Source: a bacterium (GTDB lineage: Bacteria; Bacteroidota; Ignavibacteria; UBA10030). From it: a DNA stretch of 64,000 nt. Shown piece after piece: positions 44,639 through 60,362 of the stretch. Below the pieces are notes generated by a model. It was not told the origin of the DNA, did no database searches, and saw only the letters and a program-made list of their open reading frames with translations. Location: contig JAZDJN010000111.1 of assembly GCA_043803945.1 (NCBI GenBank), positions 11,811-75,810 on the forward strand, written 5' to 3'. Position numbers and translations under genes: made by a program. Position 1 is the first letter of the stretch, and the number at the start of each line of letters is the position of its first letter.

Positions 44639-46521
44639 TTATTTTGCTAATACCATTTTTCTTAAGAATGTTTTGCCTGCGGCATTTAACCGATAGAAGT
44701 AAACTCCACTAGATAGCTTCTGAGCATTAAACTCTATTTGATGTCGGCCAACTGTCATTTCAGACTCGACCAATGTTGCCACTTCCTGTCCAATAATGGA
44801 ATACACTTTAAGAGAAACTTGGCTTGCCCGAGGCAGCTCAAATTGTATCGTCGTTGTCGGATTAAAAGGATTAGGATAATTCTGTGATAATGAAAAACTC
44901 ATTGGAACACTCTCCATCCCATCATCCCGTGTGACCATTGTAGTTGTGGTCGCCTGAATTCTACCTTCTGTATGCGGCGTAAGCTCCCCAAGACCTGCAA
45001 CGTATTCACTGAGCACTTGAAATTCAGTCAGGGCAGACTGAACTTTGACATCGGAACAAGGGATTCCGAGGAAGCTGAGGAACAGCGGAACAAATTCATT
45101 TGCTGCCACGGTATATTCTTTCATTGGATCAAGAGTATTTCCACCGATCTTCACATTGACCAGTCGTGAGTAAGGAGCAGCCTTCGGGTCATAGGTATAG
45201 CTCATCCCGGAGACTTGAGCAAGGAATTCATCATTTTCTTCTATCGAGGATAGGCCAAACTCAATTCCCGCCAATAAATCTGCCCCTTTGATTTTGAATG
45301 TTGCCATACGGTACCCCAGACCATTTTCCTCATTGAATCCATATCCAACGACTCGGAACAGATCGGCAGCCACGATTGGCCCTTTATATAACGGTTGCGC
45401 TGTGGATCCTCCGACCTCGAATGAGATGTCCGTCTTAAATTTTTCCCTATAGGCATCTGTTACCAGGTTACCGATGGGTGTATCTTTTTTTCCGAACGCT
45501 ACAAGATCCTGAGCAACTTCTTCAAGATAATCTTTTGCTACTGCGATCTGCTGTGTAAACAGAGGTCCGTACGTTTGTTCAATTGACTGGATGAGTGTTT
45601 TCACTACACCTTCGACGGTTGGTTCGATCGGAATTGTCTCGTCAACTGTCACTAACTCATAGTCGAGTACTCTCACAGAGGTTGGAGTGACTGCTAATCG
45701 GAGTTTACCAATATTCTGATAGAATGCGTTTGCTTGAACTATCAATGTCGATTCTCCACTCGGATTGGTTACTCTCACAGGCTGCTTTACAAGATAATGA
45801 TCATGTCCGCCTACGATAACGTCTATCCCCGGTATATAGCTTGCAAGGAGCTGATCCAGTGTCAGACCAAGATGCGAGAGACAGATAATTACCGAACAAC
45901 CTTGTGCCTTCAATTCAGCAACCATCATCGCAGCGGTTTCGAGGACTGTCGTATCGATCCAGGCTGGTGAGGGCTGCGAGAGGCTGTTTGTGGACGGGGT
46001 CGTCAATCCGAACATGCCTACTTTTATTCTTCCGCACTCCTTGACATAGTCAGGCCAGATGTATCGTTTTAACCATTCACGCTCGGGTCTTCAAGGTTAA
46101 TGTTTGCGGAGAGCATTGGAAAAGCAGCATCCGTGAATGCACTGTCTAAAGCCATCTGAAGAATGGCGGGTGTTAAATCAAACTCATGATTTCCGACCGC
46201 CATTGCATCGAGGCCGAGAGAGAGCAATAACTTTAGTTCGGCCACTCCGAAGAATGAATTGAAGAAGAGGTCGCCCACGAATGCATCGCCGGCATGAAGG
46301 AAGAGCACATTCGGTTCGGTCATCTTTGTATAGCCGACATAGGACGCTACTCGCGCAATTCCTCCCAAGCCCCCTTGCAGCGCTGCATTTCGCGGACCGA
46401 TGGTGCCAAGCGTCGAGTGAGTGTCATTAATATGGAGAATAGTCAGTGTATCAACCTGAGCTCTTGAGATTGAGAAGATGAACAGGCTGACCAGCAGGAA
46501 CAACGATGTACGGGTTTTCAT
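44639..46521 (-). pseudogene. 5'-nucleotidase/metallophosphatase with T9SS C-terminal domain, split by a 1-nt frameshift near 46070
   Basis: NDTH, AGD, GNHEFD and LSAN in the first ORF; SHLG, GGHDH and LSQNYPNPFNP..GVYFY in the second; the frames join with -1. Confidence 0.82.
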
Positions 46522-46628
46522 GAAAGCCTCCAATTGAGATAATTGATGATAGGTGATTGAGTGAGCGATTGTCCACAGAAGTTGCTGAGTGGATTGGAGC
46601 GTGGGCACAGATTCAAGCGGCGAAGTTC

Positions 46629-47321
46629 TTACCCATCTACGATCATACCATCCCGCAGGTGGATGATGCGATCGGCATAGTCGCACAGACGAAGGTCGTG
46701 ACTTGCAATGATAACACACCTCCCCTGGTCTTTCGCACAGCGGGCGAGCAGTCGGATGATCACCATCCCCTGTGACGATTCAAGACATGCCGTGGGCTCA
46801 TCGGCAAGCAGAAGTTCGGCATCATTTGCACAAGCACGTGCAATTGCCACGCGCTGCTTCTCCCCCTGGCTCATCCCAGATGGATATTTATCCGACAAGT
46901 GTAAAAGTTCTAAGTGTGAAAGTACGTTAAGAGATTTGGCAGTTGTCTCGCTCTTTCCTCTGCCAGCGAACTGCAAGACGAGCCGGATATTCTCCAAGGC
47001 CGTCAATGCATCGATCAATAAGAAATTTTGAAAAATGAATCCCAGGTGTCGTGCCCGTAGAGCTTGCAGATCATCCTGATTGTACTGGGATATGGGGCGA
47101 CCGAAGAGTTCTACACTCCCCTCCGTCGATTCTAATAAACCCGCCAGGACAGTGAGCAAGGTGGTCTTCCCGCTTCCGCTTGGGCCTAAGAGGAGGAGAA
47201 GTTCTCCCTGGACTGCTTCCAGGGAGATGTCTGAGAGTGCCTGAGTACGAGTTCCATTTGATCGGAAGCTTTTTGATACATTGTTCAATCTCACAATCGG
47301 TGACTGAGCGGAGTAATTCAT
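46629..47321 (-). CDS. ABC transporter ATP-binding protein (LolD/MacB-like)
   Basis: GPSGSGKT, GFIFQ, SQGEKQRVAIAR, ADEPT and SHD; ATGA overlap with the permease. Confidence 0.92.
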   Translation of the reverse strand: MNYSAQSPIVRLNNVSKSFRSNGTRTQALSDISLEAVQGELLLLLGPSGSGKTTLLTVLAGLLESTEGSVELFGRPISQYNQDDLQALRARHLGFIFQNFLLIDALTALENIRLVLQFAGRGKSETTAKSLNVLSHLELLHLSDKYPSGMSQGEKQRVAIARACANDAELLLADEPTACLESSQGMVIIRLLARCAKDQGRCVIIASHDLRLCDYADRIIHLRDGMIVDG

Positions 47322-48436
47322 GAGAGATAGACCTCCATAGGATAGATTCGGCGCAATTGGCGATACGAAAGGAATGAGCTCACCAGGTTCATCCCCAGAG
47401 CTGCGACCACTATGACGACAATTTGTTCGAGAGAAGTCTTCGTCGAAACCTCCGGGGAAACAACTTCCACGCAATGAATGAGGGGAAAAAAGAAGACGAG
47501 AGCTGTTATACAACTCGCGAGAGCAATTTCAAATCCTTGGGTGAGAATGAGTCTGGAAAGAAATGATCGAGGTGATCCAAGGATTTTCATCACCGCAAAG
47601 TCTTTTCGTTTTTCGAGGATCGTAATGGTTAGAATGAGACTCAGAATGGTAGTCAGCACCACCGCTCCAATCAACGCAAGTGTATACAGGAGAGGAAGAA
47701 ATCCCGATTGCATCTCACGGATGTTATTCTCCACGAACTCTCGTTGACAAAATACCTCCGTACCGGGAAGTTCGTTCTTAATACGTTCACGTGTAGCAAT
47801 GAGATCCGCATCGTTTTTTACGGTAACGAGAAAGCAGGAGGTCAGGCCTGAAAATCCAGCCAACGCGCGTGCCTTCGCAATACTCACAAAAGCATACTGG
47901 AGAACGAACATATTTGTCTGTTCGCTGATCCCCACAATCTTCAAAGTGTCGTTTCGGATCACCAGGGTGTTTCCCAGCACGAAACTATTTTTAAGAGCAA
48001 ACGCGCGATCAAGAATAATTTCATCATCCTCTCTCAGCGAACGCCCTTCCTTAAGTTGCGGTGGGGCTCCTATCCCTGTCGCTAGATCATACCCGGCTAC
48101 ATACACGGTCGATGATTGTGTTCCCTTTGTGATCGTCGTTAACAAAAAGAGCAAAGGAGAGACCGACTCAATCCCGGAAATCGTGCGTAGAATATTTCCA
48201 TGACCAGTTGAGAGAATTGAAAAACCTCGAAGAATATTTGTTGTCCCCTCCTGTAACACCCAGAGATCGGCCTTTGTCTGGCGTACATACTCCACCGAAC
48301 CATCGGCAACCCCATGGTAAATCGACATGAGGAAGAGCATCAGAATAATACAGAGAGCCATTCCCCCTACGGTCAATCCCATCCGAAGAGGTTGAGATCG
48401 CAGGATTCGATATGCAAACGAGAACATAGCATTCAC
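47318..48436 (-). CDS. ABC transporter permease (MacB/FtsX family)
   Basis: One TM, periplasmic domain, three TM; E...AVMKILG motif. Confidence 0.88.
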   Translation of the reverse strand: MNAMFSFAYRILRSQPLRMGLTVGGMALCIILMLFLMSIYHGVADGSVEYVRQTKADLWVLQEGTTNILRGFSILSTGHGNILRTISGIESVSPLLFLLTTITKGTQSSTVYVAGYDLATGIGAPPQLKEGRSLREDDEIILDRAFALKNSFVLGNTLVIRNDTLKIVGISEQTNMFVLQYAFVSIAKARALAGFSGLTSCFLVTVKNDADLIATRERIKNELPGTEVFCQREFVENNIREMQSGFLPLLYTLALIGAVVLTTILSLILTITILEKRKDFAVMKILGSPRSFLSRLILTQGFEIALASCITALVFFFPLIHCVEVVSPEVSTKTSLEQIVVIVVAALGMNLVSSFLSYRQLRRIYPMEVYLS

Positions 48437-48448
48437 CCTTCGTGGTGT

Positions 48449-49534
48449 TCAGGTAAACATCGGGACTTCAGGTAACAACTTGCCGCGAATCCGATTAAAA
48501 ATATCTTCCAGACTTGGACCTGTGATCGTTAAGCCATGATTTTTTAATCCGACGACCGTGCGTTGTGGTTCACCGGTGTTTCTCAGCAACTCCACAACCT
48601 CCTCAGCAAGCTCCACGGTACCACATGGATAGTTCTGTCGCGTGCAAAGGATATTATCCATCCAGGCATGGACATGCACAATTGCGTGTACGTCAGGATA
48701 CGAGCGATAGATCAATTCATGTTCGACGGCATCCACTGACACTCTTGCCTTTGGATCATAGTCCGAGGGAACACTCACGAGGGCCGAACCGCTGGAGTAA
48801 TCGAAGCCCTTCACGAGGAGAATATCTTTTCCCACGTGAGCGAGATTTGACTTATTCACACCTCGACCGCTCATCCAAAACGTCGAGCTTCCAAGCTCCG
48901 GCACCGTCTCGCGTGCACTGAGATTGCCATAGCTGAGCCCGGTGATTCCATAAATTTTATAGAGATGATGCAATTCCTGTTCTGTCAGTACAGAGCGCAG
49001 CGGAAACGGTAATGGCAGCACACCAAGTGCATCCAACTCTTTTCCGAATGCCTGAATCTGCTGCACCACTTCCGTGGGCTGCCAGCATTGCTCGGGTAAA
49101 TCCGTTGAAAATTGATTCCCTATTGCATAGTGCGATCCAACAATGGGCAGCATGGTGCGATAGATCTGCTCGGCATTCTGCGGGAGATGATAGAATCCTG
49201 CCTCTGGAGTGGTAACATAGACCTCTCCTTTTGAGCCGTTATCCGGTGCGACATAGATCAACAAATTTGAGAGTGTCCGGATCAATGTGGTGTAACACAG
49301 CGAGCGCAAATTCTCATAGGAACGGTCAGCAGCAACGAGAGAGACAATAAATACCGACTGCGAATGCCGTCGTGCTGCGCGTGGATGCTCGAGAGTAGTC
49401 GCATTCAATTGAAATGCAACTCCCTCGGTTTGTTCACCGATTTGATGTCCGTGGTGTATAAACTCTTCGACAATACCATCGACAATTCTATCGCGATGGG
49501 CATCGATTCCATCTTTATTGAAGGAAAATTTCAT
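48449..49534 (-). CDS. Class II aldolase/adducin family protein with N-terminal extension
   Basis: GNLSAR, SVD..EH, IVHVH and LKNHG metal ligands. Confidence 0.8.
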   Translation of the reverse strand: MKFSFNKDGIDAHRDRIVDGIVEEFIHHGHQIGEQTEGVAFQLNATTLEHPRAARRHSQSVFIVSLVAADRSYENLRSLCYTTLIRTLSNLLIYVAPDNGSKGEVYVTTPEAGFYHLPQNAEQIYRTMLPIVGSHYAIGNQFSTDLPEQCWQPTEVVQQIQAFGKELDALGVLPLPFPLRSVLTEQELHHLYKIYGITGLSYGNLSARETVPELGSSTFWMSGRGVNKSNLAHVGKDILLVKGFDYSSGSALVSVPSDYDPKARVSVDAVEHELIYRSYPDVHAIVHVHAWMDNILCTRQNYPCGTVELAEEVVELLRNTGEPQRTVVGLKNHGLTITGPSLEDIFNRIRGKLLPEVPMFT

Positions 49535-50943
49535 GGCACTTGCTCCTCTTGATATTCTTGAAATAGTAGATGATCTCGTTCTATGCTCTGGGCAAACGTT
49601 TCGCGATCGCGCATGAGGTGATGTGATCCGGCATTGACGCCAACGATTGCCGGACGGGCAAAACCAAACGACGATTCTAGTTGTGTGAAATACGCCCCTG
49701 AGTCCATCACAGCGAGTATCTCCCCCGATCGAACAGGCGGCATCGGTTTATTTCGATATATGACATCTCCGGCAAAACAGGCGGGACCGATAAGTGTGAC
49801 TCGTTCCGTTCGTAATTTCGTGACATCATTGCAGAGAAACACTTCATGGTATTCATAGAACGTCGGCAGCGTTACGGTACTCACGCCGCCATCTGTAATC
49901 AGCCATGTTCCCACCCCTTCGCGTGTCTTCATCCGATGGACTGTTAAGAGTAATAGTTGATTGGGGCTGACAATGCAGCGGCCGGGCTCATACAGTAGTT
50001 CAGGCAATTCTCCGGTCGGAAACGATGAAATAACAGCATCCGAGATCGCACGAGTAAAATCAATAAAGTCTGACGAGTGTTTCTGCAGATCCAGAGTTGG
50101 AAGTGTTCCAAATGCCTGGTAGAGCAACATTTCGAGAGAGTTGAACTCCCGACTCGTGCTGGAGGCGAATCCTCCTCCGACATCAAGCACCCGGACACGC
50201 ATGTCGTGATCTTGAATCCGTTCAAGAAGCGAGGGTAAACATCTTAATGCATTCACATAGTCGGCAGGACGGGTAATTCCCGTTCCGATATGAAAATGGA
50301 GTCCACGAAACGAGAGACTGCGATTCTGCTCAAGCATCACCAGCGCATTTTCGATCTCGCTCCCTTTCAGGTCGAATCCGAATGCGCATCCTTTCCTGCT
50401 TCCTGTGGCTGATCCGTCATTCATCCCTTTGGGAACATAATCCGGATTAATCCGAAGGAGAATATTCACAGCCGCATCCTCCTGGTCGGCGATGCGCTGC
50501 AGCGCTTCAAGTTCCTCAAGAGAATCAACAATAATGAGCTTTGCTCCCGCACAGACACATTGGTGCAGAAACTCATCAGTTTTGCATGGCCCATTGACAA
50601 TGATCTCCTCTTCCTGAAATCCTGCTTTCTGTGCCAATTCCAATTCGAAGGGCGTCATTACCTCCGCGTGCAATCCTGCCTGTTGAAGAATGTGAATGAC
50701 ACCAGGTACACCGTTGCATTTAAACGGATAATGCACTGTTACTTTTCCCGGATAGCTTTGCTCGGCACTTTCGCGGAATTTGAGTGCAGTTTCATAAAGC
50801 CGTTGCTCGTGGACAATATGGAGTGGTGTTCCATACTCTTCTGCCAACGCGAGCGTCCGGATACCATCCATCACTAATTCACCTGCTTCGTTGGTTTGGA
50901 GTCCCCAGGCTTGAGGATGTATTGTTGTTGTCATGATCGTCAC
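49531..50943 (-). CDS. PLP-dependent fold-III decarboxylase (Orn/DAP/Arg family)
   Basis: YPFKCN, HFHIG, DVGGG, EPGR, GPACFAGD and GAY. Confidence 0.88.
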   Translation of the reverse strand: MTIMTTTIHPQAWGLQTNEAGELVMDGIRTLALAEEYGTPLHIVHEQRLYETALKFRESAEQSYPGKVTVHYPFKCNGVPGVIHILQQAGLHAEVMTPFELELAQKAGFQEEEIIVNGPCKTDEFLHQCVCAGAKLIIVDSLEELEALQRIADQEDAAVNILLRINPDYVPKGMNDGSATGSRKGCAFGFDLKGSEIENALVMLEQNRSLSFRGLHFHIGTGITRPADYVNALRCLPSLLERIQDHDMRVRVLDVGGGFASSTSREFNSLEMLLYQAFGTLPTLDLQKHSSDFIDFTRAISDAVISSFPTGELPELLYEPGRCIVSPNQLLLLTVHRMKTREGVGTWLITDGGVSTVTLPTFYEYHEVFLCNDVTKLRTERVTLIGPACFAGDVIYRNKPMPPVRSGEILAVMDSGAYFTQLESSFGFARPAIVGVNAGSHHLMRDRETFAQSIERDHLLFQEYQEEQVP

Positions 50944-50971
50944 CTGTGAAAAATTTCTACTCCATAATACC

Positions 50972-52150
50972 TTATGAAACTCCTTCGGTTGTCACAGATT
51001 TGTCATGATGCTGTAAAACTCCCGTTGCCTGTTTCACCGCACAAAGCTCCTTCCGGTAGATGGCAAACTCCTTATCCCGTTCAAGACCAAGATGCTCGGC
51101 TGCACGAAGGGCGAGAAGATTCTCGTCGCTCATCCAGGTGGTTTCAAGAGTCTGGTAGTGCAATGCAATCTTCACCATCTCCTGTAAAAGGAGTCGATAG
51201 ATACGTGAACCTTGATAATGCTTTTTAATACCCACAGCGTAGATGAGAAGGTTTCGTACACATCTTCGTTCCTGGAGAAAGCGGAAATATTTCAGTGTAC
51301 CTACACGGCCATCCAATTTTTTTAGGAGTGGATTGATATCCAACACACATTCAAGAACGCCCACCGGCTGGTGTTTATATTCCACAATGATGATTAACTC
51401 CGGTAATGTCACCAGATCAAGATATTTTGCAGAGAAGTCATACTCTTCTTTACTGAGGGGGAGGAAATACCAGTTCTCCGAAAATGCATCGTTGAATACT
51501 TCCCGAATCCGTTCCAGCTCATTCTGTAAATCCTTTTTGTGAAATGTTCGGACGGTGAAGTCAGGTAATTTTTTTGACTCTAATAAGTCGCCATACCGAC
51601 GACGAACATACCCGGCGATATCAGTATTTTTCCTGGTATGGAGGTTTTTAGAGACACGAAATCCAGCTTGTTCCATCAGCATCGGGTAGTAGGATGGATT
51701 ATAGGGTTGGAAGAACGCAGGAGCGTCCCCGAACTTATTGATCTGCATCCCCAATTCAGAATAGTGATTGGGATTGAATGGCCCTTCGAGCGTATTGATT
51801 CCCTTCGCTCGACATAACTGTTCAACATGCTGAAACAGGTTGCAGACAGCGTGGATGTCATTGAAGGACTCAAAGAATCCAAAGAATGCCGTTCGTTGCC
51901 CGAATCGCTCCCAGTGTGAATGATTCACTACTACAGCACAACGCGAGACAGGCACATCGTCATGATAACAGACGACGAGACAGACTTCCCCCCGTGCAAA
52001 GTAGGGATTGCGCTCAGGATCGAGTACTCTGCGCACTTCCGAGTGAAGCGGTGGAATCCAGTTCTGATCCCCTTGATAAATCAATCGGGGAAGCTGCAGA
52101 AAATCGTTCATCGATCGACGATTGTCGACTCTTCGAGTAGTATAGGACAT
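50972..52150 (-). CDS. YghO-like GNAT-fold protein (family that includes bacterial ceramide synthase)
   Basis: LP.LIY..D.NWIPPL, NPYF, FGFFES, GPFN, PYNP.YY and FNDAF..NW. Confidence 0.72.
   Translation of the reverse strand: MSYTTRRVDNRRSMNDFLQLPRLIYQGDQNWIPPLHSEVRRVLDPERNPYFARGEVCLVVCYHDDVPVSRCAVVVNHSHWERFGQRTAFFGFFESFNDIHAVCNLFQHVEQLCRAKGINTLEGPFNPNHYSELGMQINKFGDAPAFFQPYNPSYYPMLMEQAGFRVSKNLHTRKNTDIAGYVRRRYGDLLESKKLPDFTVRTFHKKDLQNELERIREVFNDAFSENWYFLPLSKEEYDFSAKYLDLVTLPELIIIVEYKHQPVGVLECVLDINPLLKKLDGRVGTLKYFRFLQERRCVRNLLIYAVGIKKHYQGSRIYRLLLQEMVKIALHYQTLETTWMSDENLLALRAAEHLGLERDKEFAIYRKELCAVKQATGVLQHHDKSVTTEGVS
50990..51005. promoter_or_regulatory. TGTCA-N6-TGTCA direct repeat (OmpR/PhoB-type site) upstream of the decarboxylase gene
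   Basis: TGTCAcagattTGTCA. Confidence 0.55.
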
Positions 52151-54012
52151 GGTGTGTGCTCTTTCGAAATTCGTTCAACGACATAGTTATCATAGATGAA
52201 TGAACAATCAACGTTATGGAGTTCTCTCGCCAGCCTCCGATCCGACAAGAGAACATCTTGAAGAGACGATGGCCGCTCACGATACACAAGGAGGTTCCGG
52301 TATGTCATCACCGCACCCTCCCTTCCCACGCGGACAGAAGATCGCAGGAGCTGCTCATACGCGGCATCAGGCATCCATTCAAAAATATTTGTGAAATTGA
52401 ACCTGGTAATGCAGGAGTCAGGAAGCGTGGAGAAGTAATGTTCACAGGTGTCAGTCATCGTTTCGATCCGATCTAAACGCTCACGTATGGTTTCGTTATT
52501 CTCCGGGCGAAGATAGAGAGGTAATGCTCTCGCGTTCGGATAGGTGCCAAGCAGGATGTATGACAGGAAGTTGTTCTCTTGGAGCGGCAGCAGCGTGAGT
52601 GCCTGCTTCACTTTTGCAGAAAAATTCCTACCGAATGAGAACGACCGATCCAGATAGCGGAAGAATGCCTTATCGAAGAGGAGCGACATGAAGCTTCTAC
52701 TCAAGAGCACCGTTGTAAAGACCCACCAAAGAGGTCCCTCCCATCGACTGCGAAAGAGAGCAACCCGCTCCTCAACACTCTCAGATGAAAAAAATCCTGC
52801 AAGAGTCTTCTTTCCGATGATACAGTAAAGAAAGATCCTGAGCAGTTTCATGTATCGTTCAAAAAGGCCGCAGTGGAGTATACCATATTCAATTTTTTTT
52901 CTTTGAGTATCCCAGTAGTTCCGACTGGTCTCATTCAGAAAGTGTCGCACGTTGAGGTACTGCTCATAGCGTACTTCAGATCGATGCACTCCAATAAATT
53001 CGAGCAATTCATTATGCGACAGCGCTTTGAATGCCGCGATCTTTAGTTCGAGAAGGTGGTTTTGACAGGGATTGATATCGAGTGCGATCACCTTCGCCGG
53101 ATTATCAAGCAGAAATGCAAGGGCATTGCATCCTCCTGAAGTAATCGTGAACACGATGTCTCCTTCGGTAATCTGGAATGCTTTCCGGTCGAGCTGTGGA
53201 TCCTCCCAGCACTGGGCATACAGGATATCCTGGAACACACGATTCGACCGGCCTATAGATTTGGCTTCTTGTTGTTCTCTGTTCTCCTCCCGTACGGCCA
53301 GTCCTTTTTTTGTATGGTGCACAGCCCAATCGAACACTGCCGGAAGACCGATGAGCACAGCGTAAAAGAATTCTCCGGTGTAGGATGCAACGAGACATCC
53401 CGGTATAAACAGAACGTAGAGCGCATTGTATCGGAAACCATCCCAGTTGATACTGAATTCATGGAGAGCATTCCCCAACGACCTGAAGCTTCGTACAGTG
53501 GGCATAAGCCGTGGGACCGTTCTGTAATATACTTCAAAGTCCTTTTTGAACGCACTCTGTAATGAACGCTCCTCATACTGAATAATCTGAATGTAATGGA
53601 GAGTGAAAAGGAGTGGGAGAATCATTCCAGGATAGGGTAAACAAAGGCTGAAGGCACACATCGCGAGAAGGTCGGCAAGGTAAATTGGATTGCGTACGAT
53701 GCGATAGGGACCTTTTCCAAGAAGCCTGTCGCTTTGAATGCGAAAGGCCATGATCCGTTCCGATTGAAGAATTGTTCCCGCCCACATGCGGAGCAATGAT
53801 GATATGGCTAGAAGAAATGCAGCACAAGAAAATCCGAGCGAGGTTGAAAGTGGAACCGATACTCCAAAGAATGCTCCGAGTTGGGTGGATAAGGTTGGAA
53901 GCGATGCGTACCATCCATAACACAATGAACAGACAACCAGGACGATTAGCAGCGAAATGAAAATTCGTGCTTCAAATTCCCATCGTTGCAGAGTATAAAG
54001 AATCTGTTTCAT
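52108..54012 (-). CDS. Fusion of a PEMT/ICMT-type membrane methyltransferase and a DUF3419 (BtaA-like) aminocarboxypropyl transferase
   Basis: N-terminal TMs with GPY..VRNP.Y and EE..L...F...Y...VPR; C-terminal YAQCWEDP..D, TSGGCN, DINP.Q..LLELK, NIFEW and Y.N. Confidence 0.82.
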   Translation of the reverse strand: MKQILYTLQRWEFEARIFISLLIVLVVCSLCYGWYASLPTLSTQLGAFFGVSVPLSTSLGFSCAAFLLAISSLLRMWAGTILQSERIMAFRIQSDRLLGKGPYRIVRNPIYLADLLAMCAFSLCLPYPGMILPLLFTLHYIQIIQYEERSLQSAFKKDFEVYYRTVPRLMPTVRSFRSLGNALHEFSINWDGFRYNALYVLFIPGCLVASYTGEFFYAVLIGLPAVFDWAVHHTKKGLAVREENREQQEAKSIGRSNRVFQDILYAQCWEDPQLDRKAFQITEGDIVFTITSGGCNALAFLLDNPAKVIALDINPCQNHLLELKIAAFKALSHNELLEFIGVHRSEVRYEQYLNVRHFLNETSRNYWDTQRKKIEYGILHCGLFERYMKLLRIFLYCIIGKKTLAGFFSSESVEERVALFRSRWEGPLWWVFTTVLLSRSFMSLLFDKAFFRYLDRSFSFGRNFSAKVKQALTLLPLQENNFLSYILLGTYPNARALPLYLRPENNETIRERLDRIETMTDTCEHYFSTLPDSCITRFNFTNIFEWMPDAAYEQLLRSSVRVGREGAVMTYRNLLVYRERPSSLQDVLLSDRRLARELHNVDCSFIYDNYVVERISKEHTPCPILLEESTIVDR

Positions 54013-54021
54013 GATAGCCTC

Positions 54022-54957
54022 CTAATTTGGACAACAAATTTGTAGAGCTGATGGAACCACCTCCACTGTACAGGGAGTGGTACCGAGGAGTTCTCCATCT
54101 GCTTCGATAAGGACTTTCTCTGGTGATTCAATATGGAGTGAAGTGCTGCGGCGATAACTAAACCATGGGCAAGCGACATGCGAACCCGAATAAATGCGCG
54201 GGAAACTTGAGAGACGTTGCAGAATGGACAAATCACGCATCATCACGATATCCAATATACCGTCATCGGGTTGCGCATACGGTGCGAGATTCATTCCACC
54301 GCCTGTGAACGCACCGTTCGCGATAACAACTCCGGTAAAAGAATCGGTGATCCTATCGTACGTTCCACTTGTAAGGGTGAGGAGTTGGTTTTTATGGCTG
54401 AAGACACTCTGAATTGTGCCTAGACCAAATCCGAAGGATCCCCCCAGGCGCTTGTACTGAGTCCCAACTCGTTTGACGACACTTCCACCAATACCCAGTT
54501 GACATTCATTGATGAAATATTTGCTGGCTTTGGTATCAGATGCGGTCGTATACTCAATCTTAGCGGCATCATACCAACGTGCACGCCCCCCTGCGATCAA
54601 GGCAAATTGATCTTCGAGAGAAAGAGGCAATCCGATGCTTTGGGCAAAACCATGTCCCGTGCCGCTGCTAATGATTCCAAGCTCGCAACGATGAGTATTA
54701 TCCCGCCCACTTGTCATCAAGCCGTTAAGCACTTCATGGATTGTCCCATCACCGCCGACGACAATGATTAATCCGGCACCAGTGGATATAACCTCTTTCG
54801 TCAATTCTTCTGCATGACCCTTAGTATCGGTGCAATGCATTGTCCACCCGGATCCAACATACCGCGTCGCAAGGGTTGAAATCTCTTTCTTCTTCGAAGC
54901 GGTTTTTCCACCGGCAGAGGCAGGATTGAGAATAATATGTATCGATCTACTATTCAT
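54022..54957 (-). CDS. Diacylglycerol/sphingosine kinase family lipid kinase
   Basis: ILNPAS, GGDGT, GTG, N...GGG...AP and ADGE. Confidence 0.85.
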   Translation of the reverse strand: MNSRSIHIILNPASAGGKTASKKKEISTLATRYVGSGWTMHCTDTKGHAEELTKEVISTGAGLIIVVGGDGTIHEVLNGLMTSGRDNTHRCELGIISSGTGHGFAQSIGLPLSLEDQFALIAGGRARWYDAAKIEYTTASDTKASKYFINECQLGIGGSVVKRVGTQYKRLGGSFGFGLGTIQSVFSHKNQLLTLTSGTYDRITDSFTGVVIANGAFTGGGMNLAPYAQPDDGILDIVMMRDLSILQRLSSFPRIYSGSHVACPWFSYRRSTSLHIESPEKVLIEADGELLGTTPCTVEVVPSALQICCPN

Positions 54958-54979
54958 GATTTCTCCTGATGACTAAACG

Positions 54980-55084
54980 TTATTGAGACGACCATTGCAG
55001 ATACTCTGCGATCTTTCGCATTGAGATCACGACGAAGGCCAGAAGCAACACAGCAGCAAAACCGATTAGCATCCACAGTAACAT
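54980..55084 (-). CDS. Small single-TM protein (34 aa, MLLWMLIGFAAVLLLAFVVISMRKIAEYLQWSSQ)
   Basis: AAGAGG RBS, hydrophobic helix followed by RK, first position in the operon; below the ORF-track cutoff. Confidence 0.55.
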   Translation of the reverse strand: MLLWMLIGFAAVLLLAFVVISMRKIAEYLQWSSQ

Positions 55085-56204: not shown

Positions 56205-56762
56205 TTATTTAAGCGCTCCTGCAATTGCATAACCAAAGATGAACGAGACACGATTACCGGCTGGACTTGTTGCAAAGGCTAGATTAACAGGAATGCTGAC
56301 ACCTCCATAATTGATGGATTTTCCTACGGCAACCACAAGAGAAGTGTTCACTCCTTTTTCTCCACCGAGAATTACATTCGGTCCCATTCCAAACTCATAG
56401 CCGCTGGGAAGACGAATTCCCATAGCCAGCGTGGCACTGGGAATAACCAATCCATATTCAACGCCTCCCAGGAACGGAACTCCCTGAATGACAAATGATG
56501 GACCGCCGCCTTCAGGAATAAGCTGGTACTCAAAATGCCAACCGAACTGGCTAATGATTGAGCCTACCTTCCTGTCCTTTAGTTTCCGAACGATCTCGGT
56601 GTTCCCTGGAATGTAGGTGACACCCAGTCGAGGACCTCCGAGATTTCGCTCAGCAAAGGATACCTCATTGGGATACACGGCTGCTTGTGCCTTTACACTT
56701 TGAAGAGAGCACGTAAGAGCAATCGCTACCAGAAGCAGTGTTGTGAAGAATGATGTTTTCAT
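56205..56762 (-). CDS. Hypothetical exported protein
   Basis: GGAGG RBS, signal peptide, GPRLGVT and QFGWHFE, beta-rich. Confidence 0.7.
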   Translation of the reverse strand: MKTSFFTTLLLVAIALTCSLQSVKAQAAVYPNEVSFAERNLGGPRLGVTYIPGNTEIVRKLKDRKVGSIISQFGWHFEYQLIPEGGGPSFVIQGVPFLGGVEYGLVIPSATLAMGIRLPSGYEFGMGPNVILGGEKGVNTSLVVAVGKSINYGGVSIPVNLAFATSPAGNRVSFIFGYAIAGALK

Positions 56763-56833
56763 GATGACCTCCAAAATAAGTGAGAGTGATTGTTGATTAC
56801 CGGACTACCGGTTCATTGTTGTGTAAACTTACT

Positions 56834-57059: not shown

Positions 57060-57740
57060 CTAGCGGCATAATTTATAGCCGGCGGTATGAATGGTCACAA
57101 GATGTTTTGGTTTAGCAGGATTGATTTCAATTTTTTTTCTAATCGAGAGGATGTAGTTATCCACCGTTCGCGTGCTTGGTGTTACTTCGAATCCCCACAC
57201 GTCATCGAGCAACTGTGCGCGAGAGATTACTTCGCCTTCGTGTTGCACAAAATATTTCAACAGCTCAAATTCTTTAGAACTGAGTTTCAGTTGCTTATTT
57301 CCACGTGCAGCTTCCTGCTTCTTGAAATCGACATGGACTTGTCCAATATCGGTCTCATCAATTTCGCTTTGTACCTCAGTTTGGCGCCGGAGCAGTGCTT
57401 TTACCCGTGCAATCAGTTCTTTGATACTGAACGGTTTTGTGACATAGTCATCGGCACCCAGTTCCAATCCGAGGACTTTATCAACCTCCTCTCCTCTGCC
57501 GGTCAGCATAATAATGGGAGTCTGGACTCCTGCGGTACGCAACTGTTTACAGACATCGAATCCATTGATCCCTGGAAGCATCACATCCAGAATAATGAGA
57601 TCGAACTTCTTTCGCTTTCCCATCATCAATCCCTCAGTTCCATCGGATGATGCTGAAATCTCGAAATGTTCCGCCTGGAGATTATCTTTCAAACCGCGGA
57701 GAATGGCCGTATCGTCTTCAACGATGAGGATTTTCTTCAT
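57060..57740 (-). CDS. OmpR/PhoB-family response regulator
   Basis: VEDD, LDVMLP, GADDYVTKPF and winged helix RTVDNYI..IRKKIE, GYK. Confidence 0.95.
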   Translation of the reverse strand: MKKILIVEDDTAILRGLKDNLQAEHFEISASSDGTEGLMMGKRKKFDLIILDVMLPGINGFDVCKQLRTAGVQTPIIMLTGRGEEVDKVLGLELGADDYVTKPFSIKELIARVKALLRRQTEVQSEIDETDIGQVHVDFKKQEAARGNKQLKLSSKEFELLKYFVQHEGEVISRAQLLDDVWGFEVTPSTRTVDNYILSIRKKIEINPAKPKHLVTIHTAGYKLCR

Positions 57741-60211
57741 GGGTGTCTTCTCGCTTTATTCGTTGTGATTGGGAAGCGCATTGTAAATTTGCTGCCAACA
57801 CCTACTGCACTCTCAACTGTAATCGTACCCTGGTGTGCGTCAACAATATGTTTGACGAGTGAAAGGCCAAGACCGGCACCACCGACCTGGCAGCTTCGGT
57901 CATCGGAGATTCGATAGAAGCGTTCAAAGATCTTCGTCGATTCCGAGGAAGGTATGCCAAAACCTGTATCGGAGATCTCGAGTAAAAGATGACCTTGTTC
58001 TTTGCAGGCTTTCAAATTAATCTCCGATTTATCCTTTGAATATTTTAAGGCATTCGACAGAAGATTCAGGATCGCCTGCTCGAGAGCGTCCGGATCAGCA
58101 GAGATGGCGGGTAATTTCTTTTGGATCGCAACCCTGACTCTGGCTTTATGTTTTTTCACCTCGTACTCAATCGCTTTCAATGCCCGATGAGTAACCCCCT
58201 CAATGCTCAAAGGAACAAATTTGTATTCCCGCATCCCACGTTCGATTTTGGCGAAATCCATAATGTTGCCGATCAGCCGCGAAAGGCGCTCACTTTCACC
58301 ATAAATAATCCTCAGATATTCCTTCTGTTTTCTCCGACTTACGTTCCGCTGAACCATCAGAGTCTCTGCGAACATCCGGATGGAGGTCAATGGCATACGC
58401 AATTCATGAGAAATGCTTGATACAAAGTAGGACTTAAGGGCATTCAGTTCTTCCAACCGCTGCTTCTCTTGCCGCGTCAGGAGGATTTGTTCCTGCAGGA
58501 TCAACCGATCGAGAATATCCCGGGTGTGGGCACAGACCGTCTCCAGTAGAGAAACTTCTTCATCCTGAATGATTTCAGTCTGCACATGGGGTGTCAGCGT
58601 GAGGATACCAAACAGTTTCTGCTCACCTATGCAAATCGGAATGCATAACGACCACTTCATCAATCCAAGCCATTCCTGAATCTCCCTCAGTTCAGGAAGG
58701 TCGGCCGATCCTTTTTTCACTCCCCTGATGATCATTCCACAGTTGAGGGCCGATTGGATTTTGTCCGGTACTTGCACTTTGTCAGGCGGCTTCATTCCGA
58801 TACCGGCGAGGTACTCCCATCCATCGGATGTATTCCTATAAAGATCGACGGCGTTCGTTGGAATGCACTGATGGACAGATTCTACGAGATGCCGATAGAG
58901 TTCCTCCCGGCTTAACGATGAATCAAGACTTTTCCTAATTTGATCGAGAGCGCGCCGATAGTTGGCACGAGCAGCAAAAAAGGTTTCATCCACAAAACCT
59001 TGCAGCCAGCGTCGGAAAGGATGCAGCGCAAGGCCAAAAATCAGCATGAGCAATGCAAAGGAAAAATATTTCCCAAAGACTTTCTCCCCTCCAACCATAG
59101 AGACAGTGAGCAGTACCGTTAATACATAGATGACAACAATAATAAATGAGAGAATGCTGTAGACGATTGTACGGTTGATGAGCAATTCAATATCGAGAAG
59201 TTGGTACCGAAGGAATGCAATCGCAAAGGAGACCGGCACGGCGAGGAAACAGATGGTGGTGTACTCTTCAGGAACTAAAACTTGGGAAAAAATGATTTGG
59301 GGAAGAATATGAACAATCAGATAAGGCAGAATGCCTATTCCCAATCCCCAGAGAATCCAGAATAATTGTTTTCGTTCCTGCATCGTCAGGTTTTGTCGCG
59401 TTGAAGATAAAATGAAATAGAATCCTCCACCGGAAAAAAGAAAAAGAGAACTATGAAAGAGATCGAAGAGTAGTTGGAATGTATTGAGTGTTGATAGATC
59501 TGCTGTTTCCAGTACCTTGATGTGGCTGAGCCCAAGAAAAAATCCTACACAGAGAACCGCGATCATAATCCATGGAGTGGCTTGCGCCAATCGCTTCACC
59601 CTTTCGACAGGAAATGATAAACCGAATATCAGGAAGGAGACTGCTACACCCAGATAGGCCATAAACCAGATTGTCCTGCTGATGTACATCTCCCACGATC
59701 CCGGCGGGGCCGCTCCCCACGTAATCATGATCGTTGTGCCAAAGGAAACCATCATCCAATGCGTCACACGGGCCGCTAATTTATCCGATTGCGTGAGAAG
59801 AACAAAAACTCCCACAAAGAAAATACAGAGACCGACGATGAGTGAAATGACGAGGAATCGCGATGATTGATAGAACTCTATCAATCTGATTGAGGTCGTG
59901 AAACTGCTGTCGCCCCGTAGAAATGTACAGCGGATTGAAGAATGGAGGGGGCGGACATCGGCAAGATATTCTATCATCTCAGGAAAATGAACTTCCACCT
60001 CTTCCCATCTTAGAATAGTATCTCCGGCTTTAGCATCCCGACATGCACTTGAATCAATGATCTCAGCAACAAGGGGATGTAGATCGCCTTGAGCCACCTC
60101 AAAGGGTATACCAGGTCGATCGAGAATTTTAGGAATGTGATTAAAGCAGAGAATCAGAATGATGAGGTCGACACAGAGATAGAGGACGGTACGAAAGCCC
60201 AATGGCTTCAT
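57737..60211 (-). CDS. Multi-TM sensor histidine kinase with GAF-like domain
   Basis: SHELRMPLT H-box, NLLSNALKYS, DTGFGI, FERFYR and GAGLGL; many TMs; ATGA overlap with the regulator. Confidence 0.92.
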   Translation of the reverse strand: MKPLGFRTVLYLCVDLIILILCFNHIPKILDRPGIPFEVAQGDLHPLVAEIIDSSACRDAKAGDTILRWEEVEVHFPEMIEYLADVRPLHSSIRCTFLRGDSSFTTSIRLIEFYQSSRFLVISLIVGLCIFFVGVFVLLTQSDKLAARVTHWMMVSFGTTIMITWGAAPPGSWEMYISRTIWFMAYLGVAVSFLIFGLSFPVERVKRLAQATPWIMIAVLCVGFFLGLSHIKVLETADLSTLNTFQLLFDLFHSSLFLFSGGGFYFILSSTRQNLTMQERKQLFWILWGLGIGILPYLIVHILPQIIFSQVLVPEEYTTICFLAVPVSFAIAFLRYQLLDIELLINRTIVYSILSFIIVVIYVLTVLLTVSMVGGEKVFGKYFSFALLMLIFGLALHPFRRWLQGFVDETFFAARANYRRALDQIRKSLDSSLSREELYRHLVESVHQCIPTNAVDLYRNTSDGWEYLAGIGMKPPDKVQVPDKIQSALNCGMIIRGVKKGSADLPELREIQEWLGLMKWSLCIPICIGEQKLFGILTLTPHVQTEIIQDEEVSLLETVCAHTRDILDRLILQEQILLTRQEKQRLEELNALKSYFVSSISHELRMPLTSIRMFAETLMVQRNVSRRKQKEYLRIIYGESERLSRLIGNIMDFAKIERGMREYKFVPLSIEGVTHRALKAIEYEVKKHKARVRVAIQKKLPAISADPDALEQAILNLLSNALKYSKDKSEINLKACKEQGHLLLEISDTGFGIPSSESTKIFERFYRISDDRSCQVGGAGLGLSLVKHIVDAHQGTITVESAVGVGSKFTMRFPITTNKARRHP

Positions 60212-60362
60212 GATCCAGTGCCTTATAGATGGGGTTCTTCCAATTGCCGAAAGTGTAAGAACTTCAAGCGAAAGAATCAAGCCTTCCGGAATTACACTGG
60301 GAAGAAAAGGAAAGGCCACTCAGTAAGCGGCCTTGAACAGATACATTTGTGTGAAAGTTCGT

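Follow-up and report, generated by a model that had tools for sequence, protein, structure and literature searches.

The minus strand of a 64,000-nucleotide (nt) stretch of DNA from an ignavibacterial genome (Bacteroidota; Ignavibacteria; UBA10030; GenBank assembly GCA_043803945.1, contig JAZDJN010000111.1, positions 11,811 to 75,810; herein the window, with G000 denoting its genome) carries eight co-directional open reading frames (ORFs) between positions 46629 and 55084 of the window, which together make up a candidate operon for an aminolipid. In the order of transcription, a 34-codon ORF for a single-pass hydrophobic peptide (54980..55084), read from the sequence 22 nt 5' of the next gene, precedes a YegS/BmrU/DgkB-type soluble lipid kinase of 311 amino acids (aa; 54022..54957), a 634-aa PEMT::DUF3419 fusion (52108..54012), a YghO-family tandem-GNAT acyl-CoA N-acyltransferase of 392 aa (50972..52150), a 470-aa fold-type III pyridoxal phosphate (PLP) decarboxylase that is a paralog of LysA (49531..50943), a two-domain class II aldolase-like protein of 361 aa (48449..49534), a MacB/LolC/FtsX-type ATP-binding cassette (ABC) permease with a periplasmic core domain (372 aa, 47318..48436), and a DevA/LolD/MacB-type ABC ATPase (46629..47321). 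The ATPase is likely to start at the ATG at 47321, which gives 230 aa, rather than at the listed TTG at 47513. Spacing within the cluster ranges from -43 to +28 nt and includes two 4-nt overlaps of the ATGA type. The GC content of the cluster equals that of the rest of the window, the flanking genes are housekeeping genes (recA, recX, cinA, an Omp85-family gene, and bioY), and neither the flanks nor the GC content of the window shows signs of a mobile element.

An earlier note on this DNA, made from the letters and the translated ORFs, had described the eight genes as co-oriented and mostly abutting or overlapping, and had assigned them to families. All of the ORFs are present, and Pfam, NCBIfam, hhalign, and Foldseek agree with the assignments for the kinase, the fusion, the GNAT, the decarboxylase, the aldolase, and the ABC pair. 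Its inclusion of the small transmembrane protein as an operon member stands only in part: the ORF exists but does not belong to the conserved set, a comparable small hydrophobic ORF lying 5' of the kinase in just 4 of 57 loci, of which three are closely related to the window cassette. The small ORF is clade specific and outside the conserved core of seven genes.

The arrangement of these seven genes recurs widely. Of 40 relatives scanned with the fusion protein as query, three match it over its whole length (G010 and G014 at 55-57% identity, G039 as two pieces); in each of them the seven genes keep the same order to the extent that the contigs cover them. A species-level scan (one genome per species) gave 79 loci, drawn from the best 80 of at least 599 pattern matches (560 confirmed relatives); 63 loci among these best 80 have both the PEMT-like and the DUF3419 parts. 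Among loci whose sequence extends far enough on the side in question (loci with room), the kinase is present in 58/58, the YghO-like gene in 59/60, the decarboxylase in 57/58, the aldolase-like gene in 57/57, the permease in 43/50, and the ATPase in 42/48. All seven genes occur together in 42 of the 63 loci, many of the remainder being cut by contig ends, and gene order is kept without violation across the 63. Recurrence of the same order in dozens of genomes is an arrangement far beyond chance, and it bears out the co-occurrence that the earlier note had proposed to check by synteny. All-vs-all clustering of flanking ORFs from 58 loci brought up no additional family shared by more than 18 loci, so that the cassette has sharp limits. 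At four loci of this set another gene follows the aldolase-like gene; in the one checked (L041, which ends too early to enter the ABC counts) it encodes an outer-membrane protein (OMP) β-barrel. A literature search found no paper describing this gene set, subscription journals being outside its coverage, in keeping with the earlier note, which had recognized no described pathway.

The fusion protein joins two S-adenosylmethionine (SAM)-related domains. Its N-terminal part (residues ~1-240) is a multi-pass membrane SAM methyltransferase of the PEMT/ICMT type, with hydrophobic segments evident in the translation and a match to PF04191 (PEMT) over residues 64-157 (36.7 bits; cut-off 25). Against NCBIfam, ICMT, LmtA, and MddA are all subthreshold; the best match, an isoprenylcysteine carboxyl O-methyltransferase, scores 25 bits, far below its cut-off. 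The C-terminal part (~257-612) matches DUF3419 (PF11899, E = 1.6e-68) over profile positions 3-382 of 385 and is, from this similarity, a putative BtaA-like transferase of the 3-amino-3-carboxypropyl (ACP) group of SAM. The two parts are encoded by a single ORF in 49 of the 63 loci and by two adjacent ORFs in the other 14, 12 of which are split at the domain linker.

BtaA, whose known acceptor is diacylglycerol (DAG), acts with BtaB to make the betaine lipid diacylglyceryltrimethylhomoserine (DGTS) in Rhodobacter and rhizobia. The cassette domain aligns with BtaA over its whole length and shares the motifs Y-x-Q-x-WEDP, SGGCN, and LPxYL; by analogy it is predicted to share SAM as the ACP donor and a membrane lipid as the substrate. 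It is, however, just 26-31% identical to btaB-linked proteins (the Rhizobium leguminosarum pSK03 protein aligns over 378 columns at 26%, E = 3e-31, and a Chondrinema "BtaA family protein" over 291 columns at 31%). The canonical btaA genes on the Chondrinema plasmid and on Rhizobium pSK03 are each followed, directly adjacent, by a class I methyltransferase alone. In contrast, Pfam detects no class I methyltransferase of the BtaB type in any of the seven cassette proteins, in agreement with the absence of BtaB reported in the earlier note; a PEMT/ICMT-type membrane methyltransferase is fused or adjacent instead, and kinase, PLP decarboxylase, YghO-like, and class II aldolase-like genes accompany the DUF3419 domain.

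The decarboxylase might have been plain LysA, an outcome that the earlier note had set against its own reading. It contains both Orn/DAP/Arg decarboxylase domains (Orn_Arg_deC_N, 1.2e-39) and scores 259.6 bits on TIGR01048, below the cut-off of 297.9, whereas the true LysA of the genome lies elsewhere (G000:C17) and scores 488.9 bits. Alignment of 42 cassette decarboxylases with this LysA shows that K75, H218, the GGG loop, EPGR, C389, and Y418 are invariant. In contrast, the Arg of the LysA RPxxY motif is replaced in all 42 cassette members (Met in 24, Leu in 17, Thr in 1), and the LysA CESGD motif becomes CF(A/S)xD, with Glu replaced by Phe in 42/42 and Ser by Ala in 31/42. R, E, and S are all retained in the LysA of G000 itself, and the same motifs occur in four solved LysA sequences. 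We take the RPxxY Arg and the CESGD Glu-Ser (R344, E376, and S377 in Mycobacterium tuberculosis) to hold the distal carboxylate and ammonium of diaminopimelate (DAP). Judged by its sequence, then, the cassette enzyme is a paralog and not plain LysA, and a predicted pocket lined by Met or Leu, Phe, and Ala would fit a substrate whose far end is uncharged or lipidic. Members of the LysA family have been recruited to other pathways, among them BtrK (acting on glutamyl-ACP, here acyl carrier protein), the N-citrylornithine decarboxylase FslC, and the exosortase-A-associated TIGR03099. The cassette enzyme resembles these in its fold, its catalytic residues, its place in a biosynthetic cluster, and its subthreshold score to LysA; it differs in being nearer to LysA (161 bits to LysA 1twi, 86-96 bits to the enzymes just named) and in its own signature of Met/Leu for the RPxxY Arg and CF(A/S)xD for CESGD.

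The GNAT protein has only a marginal match in Pfam (Acetyltransf_1, 21.3 bits). A profile of 47 orthologs nevertheless aligns with Escherichia coli K-12 YghO over 368 columns at 24% identity (hhalign probability 100, E = 1.7e-46), so that the assignment of the earlier note holds for a true full-length homolog. The AlphaFold2 (AF2) model (pLDDT 91.9) is a tandem GNAT, and its Foldseek matches are tandem GNATs, MshD, and N-myristoyltransferase; the tail past residue ~370 is not conserved, leaving a conserved core of ~370 of the 392 aa. The earlier note had also placed a bacterial ceramide synthase in this family, and a figure legend in PMC9386255 does give yghO (ECD_02850) alongside CC_1154 under "aca", the acyl-CoA N-acyltransferase on which dihydroceramide synthesis depends.

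A second YghO paralog, 30% identical to that of the cassette, is encoded elsewhere in G000 (C87:339579-344105; locus L102, 7579-12105), where it is flanked by a short-chain dehydrogenase/reductase (SDR), a serine palmitoyltransferase (Spt)-like oxoamine synthase, and ilvE. The best NCBIfam match of the Spt-like gene is serine palmitoyltransferase (480 bits, below the cut-off of 640), and this set is likely a ceramide-type lipid module. In the window's class the paralog is present in 393 of 401 genomes (a tally that takes in the unpublished genome G391). All five cassette holders probed from other phyla have a second YghO paralog, as does G657; it adjoins an Spt-like gene in three of the five (WOR-3, Trueperaceae, and Gemmatimonadota). 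Any match to the YghO family was found in 156 of 251 genomes of the Gemmatimonadota-type phylum (a tally that takes in the unpublished genomes G605, G645, and G729) and in 80 of 151 of the WOR-3-type phylum. In Deinococci the family is confined to 7 of 121 genomes at E <= 1e-30, four of which besides G425 score at the paralog-type level of 246-286 bits. With the paralog common in three of the four groups sampled, an association of the cassette with a ceramide module is suggestive at best. Bacterial ceramide synthesis (Spt, the YghO-family "aca"/bCerS, and a reductase) resembles the cassette in its N-acyltransferase, a full-length YghO homolog, and, through the ceramide kinase of Caulobacter, in its DAGK_cat-type lipid kinase. 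It differs in that no Spt or reductase lies inside the cassette in any of 58 loci, and in that the Spt-like/YghO/SDR set of G000 is separate. From this separate set and the 30% identity between the two proteins, we infer that the YghO-like enzyme of the cassette is a paralog whose amine substrate is presumably different.

The kinase carries both the DAGK_cat (1.7e-23) and YegS_C (8.8e-30) domains and exceeds the cut-off of TIGR00147 (132.9 vs 118.65 bits), but all substrate-specific NCBIfam equivalogs remain below cut-off; its nearest solved relatives are DAG kinase, BmrU, and YegS (78 bits), compared with 33 bits for sphingosine kinase. The aldolase-like protein matches Aldolase_II in its C-terminal half only (4.8e-16). 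Its AF2 model (pLDDT 88.6) has an α/β domain at the N terminus (~1-170) and a class II aldolase/adducin fold at the C terminus, with Foldseek matches to AraD and FucA (1e-8 to 1e-6) and also to the oxygenase members TqaM and NovR. All named NCBIfam members (FucA, AraD, MtnB, and RhaD) are far below cut-off, the best being mtnB (30.9 vs 137 bits). For the N-terminal domain no known family was found; Foldseek gives a weak flavodoxin-like match (E about 4e-3), and a feature search reached 0.78, below the trust level. Residues N204, S266, D268, H287, H289, and H333 are invariant in 45 sequences and align with E. coli FucA N29, S71, E73, H92, H94, and H155, at an hhalign probability of just 84%. 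We take the FucA residues to be metal ligands and part of the phosphate site; several of them are named in the titles of mutant entries in the Protein Data Bank (PDB).

The decarboxylase and aldolase-like genes overlap by 4 nt in the window, and in three metagenome-assembled genomes (MAGs) labeled Gemmatimonadota they form a single ORF of 835-855 aa with all three Pfam domains (L034, 3131-5635; L038, 12995-15514; L044, 5907-8471). Because the kinase is always present, the phosphate-site residues of FucA type are kept, and the aldolase-like protein can be fused to the decarboxylase, a phosphorylated intermediate is likely, handled by the decarboxylase/aldolase-like pair. A divergent homolog of the aldolase-like protein also exists outside any cassette (L104, 9441-15440, in G061, 37%; L103, 39%), in 7/7 sampled genomes of the ignavibacterial family f19; its neighbors there are a peptidase S9, a standard class II aldolase, and a homocysteine S-methyltransferase/methylenetetrahydrofolate reductase (MTHFR) fusion, a context that hints at methionine metabolism. 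Together with MtnB as the best NCBIfam match, these neighbors could hint at methylthioadenosine (MTA) salvage, which seems only remotely possible for the cassette. As a module for salvaging the MTA that ACP transfer would release, the kinase and the aldolase-like protein were rejected: a canonical MtnA (424 bits) and two class II aldolases of the ordinary kind are already encoded in G000, and DAGK_cat kinases are not known to act on ribose.

The ATPase (ABC_tran, 3.1e-32) is closest in NCBIfam to the DevA family (207.7 bits), followed by LolD (184.6 bits), and none of the named ABC equivalogs (LolD, DevA, and MacB) reaches its cut-off. The permease combines FtsX (1.4e-9) with a MacB periplasmic core domain (MacB_PCD, 3.1e-14) and has its cognate ATPase alongside. 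In the MacB_PCD + FtsX permease and the LolD/DevA-like ATPase, the pair resembles the LolCDE, MacB, and DevCA type VII ABC systems; the cassette, however, includes neither a membrane fusion protein nor a second permease, and at six loci with room the two ABC genes are absent (four of these within the 58-locus clustering set). MacB/Lol-type permeases that work without a fusion protein handle lipidated cargo.

DUF3419 genes also occur in two other types of cassette. In one (herein type C; L091, 5128-16920, from the cultured Methylomonas aurea SURF-1, and L081 and L086, labeled by their submitters Planctomycetota and Candidatus Acidiferrales), with a DUF3419 protein 36-39% identical to the window's, the order runs from a PPDK_N/PEP-utilizers phosphotransferase through DUF3419, a membrane protein outside any known family, and a YghO-like protein (17-19% identity with its window counterpart by alignment) to an AMP-binding ligase, an ABC ATPase, and an FtsX permease; in Methylomonas, hydroxymethylglutaryl-CoA (HMG-CoA) reductase and UbiA genes precede the phosphotransferase. 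The 449-aa membrane protein of this cassette was considered as a hidden decarboxylase or aldolase and rejected (hhalign probability <1% for both). The other (type B, in G032 and G034, relatives from the same taxonomic order) contains UbiA, a DAGK-type kinase, an AIR-synthase-related protein, a permease, an ATPase, DUF3419 (27%), and a GNAT. In G032 (L015, 8784-15757) it adjoins a response regulator and histidine kinase orthologous to the pair near the window cassette, and in G034 (L014) the same nucleotidase family that is found after the window cassette. The three cassettes have in common DUF3419, a GNAT, a MacB-type ABC system, and an enzyme that uses ATP for phosphotransfer. The ATP-using enzymes are unrelated to one another (YegS type, PPDK type, and AIR-synthase type), and canonical btaAB lacks any. 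A further DUF3419 match (36%), nearer to the window's domain than rhizobial BtaA is, lies where no feature is annotated on the replicon of a cultured Firmicute, Brevibacillus laterosporus (NZ_CP011076.1, 468508-469569).

We propose, at a probability of roughly one half, that the seven genes at 46629-54957 form one operon-like cassette that builds a non-DGTS aminolipid, with a head group derived from the ACP of SAM, and moves it out of the inner membrane; the product is probably a membrane lipid not yet described. The membrane-anchored DUF3419 domain would alkylate a lipid acceptor with ACP, probably at the free hydroxyl of DAG, as in BtaA, and less likely on a lipid phosphate supplied by the YegS-type kinase or on ceramide. 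The LysA paralog would then remove the α-carboxyl of the lipid-bound homoserine to leave a 3-aminopropyl head, the free amine of which could be N-acylated by the YghO-like enzyme or N-methylated by the PEMT-type domain; alternatively, this domain might methyl-esterify the carboxyl in a branch without decarboxylation. The kinase and the class II aldolase-like enzyme would both handle the same intermediate in a phosphorylated state, and the MacB/Lol-type ABC pair may, as an optional step, extract the product from the inner membrane toward the outer membrane. An analogy is the route from phosphatidylserine (PS) through phosphatidylethanolamine (PE) to phosphatidylcholine (PC) via PS decarboxylase and PmtA/PEMT, in which an amino acid head group is likewise decarboxylated to a primary amine that a PEMT-type enzyme can methylate. 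The cassette decarboxylase, however, is a PLP-dependent fold-type III LysA paralog whereas PS decarboxylase is pyruvoyl dependent, and the amino acid unit would derive from SAM (homoserine type, one carbon longer) and not from serine. The proposal is in essence that of the earlier note, whose families stand; the note had left the class II aldolase unexplained and understated phosphorylation, which it allowed only as a possibility. With the aldolase-like protein fused to the decarboxylase in three loci and its FucA phosphate-site residues kept, phosphorylation appears integral to the pathway and the aldolase-like protein tied to the decarboxylase. The acceptor may be ceramide rather than DAG.

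Several points weigh against this proposal. Were DAG the acceptor, a DAG kinase would have no obvious use; a simple scheme of ACP transfer, decarboxylation, and acylation leaves no room for the aldolase-like enzyme, whose phosphate-site residues hint at other chemistry; and the PEMT-type and YghO-like enzymes would compete for the same amine. LysA acts on a D-center, while the ACP group of SAM is L, and the roles assigned above to the distal LysA residues are presumptive. Locus L017 lacks the YghO-like and decarboxylase genes, and the six loci without ABC genes imply that export is not obligatory. More generally, what the acceptor and the product are, how the steps are ordered, and which way transport runs are all inferred for a cassette known here from its genes.

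We consider quite unlikely a variant in which the kinase makes phosphatidic acid or ceramide-1-phosphate, DUF3419 alkylates the phosphate to give a phospho-homoserine, the LysA paralog and the aldolase-like protein convert this to phospho-3-aminopropanol, and the PEMT-type domain methylates the amine. It is hinted at because three unrelated phosphotransfer enzymes accompany DUF3419 in three cassettes and none does so in btaAB. If true, it would provide a SAM-driven route, independent of cytidine diphosphate (CDP) and serine, to analogs of PS, PE, and PC one carbon longer, and thus a new class of phospholipid head group.

Another alternative, unlikely in our view, is a sphingolipid-type pathway, in which a ceramide or sphingoid acceptor would be made elsewhere in the genome, the cassette kinase would serve as a ceramide or sphingoid kinase, the YghO-like protein would be a second ceramide synthase, and the ACP-derived head would sit on ceramide or ceramide-1-phosphate. 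The YghO family does hold a bacterial dihydroceramide N-acyltransferase, according to PMC9386255. G000 has its second paralog beside an Spt-like gene and an SDR reductase, and a second paralog is likewise present in the 5/5 probed holders of other phyla and in G657, with an Spt-like neighbor in 3/5; in Deinococci, where the family is rare (7/121), the sole cassette holder has one too. DAGK_cat kinases, too, include sphingosine kinases. But the paralog is common anyway (393/401, 156/251, and 80/151), so that a single informative case carries the association; neither Spt nor a reductase enters the cassette in any of 58 loci, the kinase is nearer to DAG kinase, BmrU, and YegS than to sphingosine kinase (78 vs 33 bits), and the known acceptor of BtaA is DAG.

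It is rather improbable that the PEMT-type domain simply replaces BtaB, so that the fusion alone makes DGTS and the other genes serve side functions. Such an arrangement would have a counterpart in BTA1, a BtaB::BtaA fusion that makes DGTS in algae and fungi, and would draw on the ability of PEMT-family enzymes to N-methylate a lipid-bound primary amine; the two domains are fused or adjacent in 63/63 loci, and the class I methyltransferase that follows canonical btaA is missing here. Yet the decarboxylase (57/58), the YghO-like protein (59/60), and the aldolase-like protein (57/57) are conserved as strictly as the fusion, and a PLP decarboxylase and an N-acyltransferase need an unmethylated amine and so cannot act on DGTS. 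The DUF3419 domain is also distant from btaB-linked BtaA (26-31% identity), and with an O-methyltransferase as the best, sub-cut-off NCBIfam match of the N-terminal domain (25 bits), N-methylation is not established. We regard as very unlikely a product that is no lipid at all but a soluble or secreted small molecule, polyamine-like or opine/nicotianamine-like, assembled from ACP and a decarboxylated amino acid and exported by the ABC pair. LysA-like decarboxylases do serve siderophore and polyamine pathways, with N-citrylornithine decarboxylase and BtrK among the solved relatives; ACP transfer followed by decarboxylation amounts to aminopropylation, and enzymes of the class II aldolase fold act on soluble sugar phosphates. 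Against this, four of the seven proteins come from lipid-handling families (the YegS-type kinase, the membrane PEMT-type domain, DUF3419/BtaA, and YghO), the predicted decarboxylase pocket has turned hydrophobic, permeases of this type without a fusion protein take lipidated cargo, and the 58-locus clustering reveals no conserved NIS synthetase, opine dehydrogenase, or polyamine gene nearby.

Holders of the cassette carry submitter labels that span at least eight phylum-level lineages: Ignavibacteria, Bacteroidia (Bacteroidales, Saprospiraceae, and Cytophagales), Aminicenantes, WOR-3, Gemmatimonadota, Trueperaceae, Nitrospirota, Kryptoniota, and Calditrichia. These labels are partly unreliable (two loci are called "Eubacteriales"), and nearly all holders are known from MAGs alone, with fen, wastewater, and aquifer among the sources; two loci lie on closed MAG chromosomes. 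Within each sampled group the cassette is rare. The aldolase-like profile matches 21 of 401 genomes of the window's class at E <= 1e-30, 14 strongly (516-598 bits) and 7 in the divergent form that occurs in another gene context. YghO matches of the operon type were found in 1/121 Deinococci, in 2/251 genomes from the phylum of the Gemmatimonadota-labeled genome, and in 1/151 from the phylum of the WOR-3-labeled genome. A quick maximum-likelihood tree of the decarboxylase and aldolase-like proteins (42 rows; 17 left out for length, stop codons, or as duplicate relatives) contains two starred clades. Bacteroidia make up most of one, in which WOR-3 and Trueperaceae are nested, and Ignavibacteria make up most of the other, in which Aminicenantes, Nitrospirota, and Kryptoniota are nested. 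Such a topology and the rarity are compatible with some lateral spread, the labels and the rooting falling short of proof.

Nonstandard membrane lipids of bacteria shape outer-membrane properties, phosphate economy, and perception by host innate immunity, and many aminolipids seen in environmental lipidomics remain unassigned. The cassette is a well-delimited, clonable unit of ~8 kb whose enzyme families are individually understood and whose combination we did not find described in the literature covered. Knowledge of its product should give functions to a divergent branch of BtaA, to a LysA paralog with a hydrophobic pocket, to a non-sphingolipid YghO paralog, and to an orphan two-domain enzyme of the class II aldolase fold, and the cassette would supply a genetic marker for its lipid in metagenomes.

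Upstream of the cassette, also on the minus strand, Pfam identifies an OmpR-type response regulator (57060-57740) and a multi-pass GAF histidine kinase (57737-60319). From this context the pair is a possible candidate regulator of the cassette; at 9 of the 63 loci, all from the Ignavibacteria-type clade, the cassette likewise has an ortholog of the response regulator (58-66% identity) upstream. A scan of the window for promoters and terminators gave counts not above those of shuffled sequences (25 vs 19.2 ± 4.5 and 13 vs 11.9 ± 3.6). The sole strong terminator of the scan, a hairpin with an 18-bp stem upstream of the cassette (56162-56123, minus strand), follows the gene for a 189-aa signal-peptide protein without a Pfam family (56205-56774), a 57% identical homolog of which is found just downstream of the cassette in relative G014 (L011/L053).

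After the ATPase gene, the minus strand at 44639-46719 encodes a 5'-nucleotidase/UshA-like protein with a type IX secretion system (T9SS) tail, split by a frameshift into ORFs 46069-46719 and 44639-46015; the first frame meets several stops, so this is either a pseudogene or an assembly error. Intact homologs directly follow the cassette at five loci (L019, L027, L067, L072, and L080), and the family occurs in 10 of 58. At 5.54 Mb, G000 is larger than all 40 sampled relatives (1.6-4.4 Mb), and it contains three further PEMT/ICMT-like genes (C16, C112, and C38).

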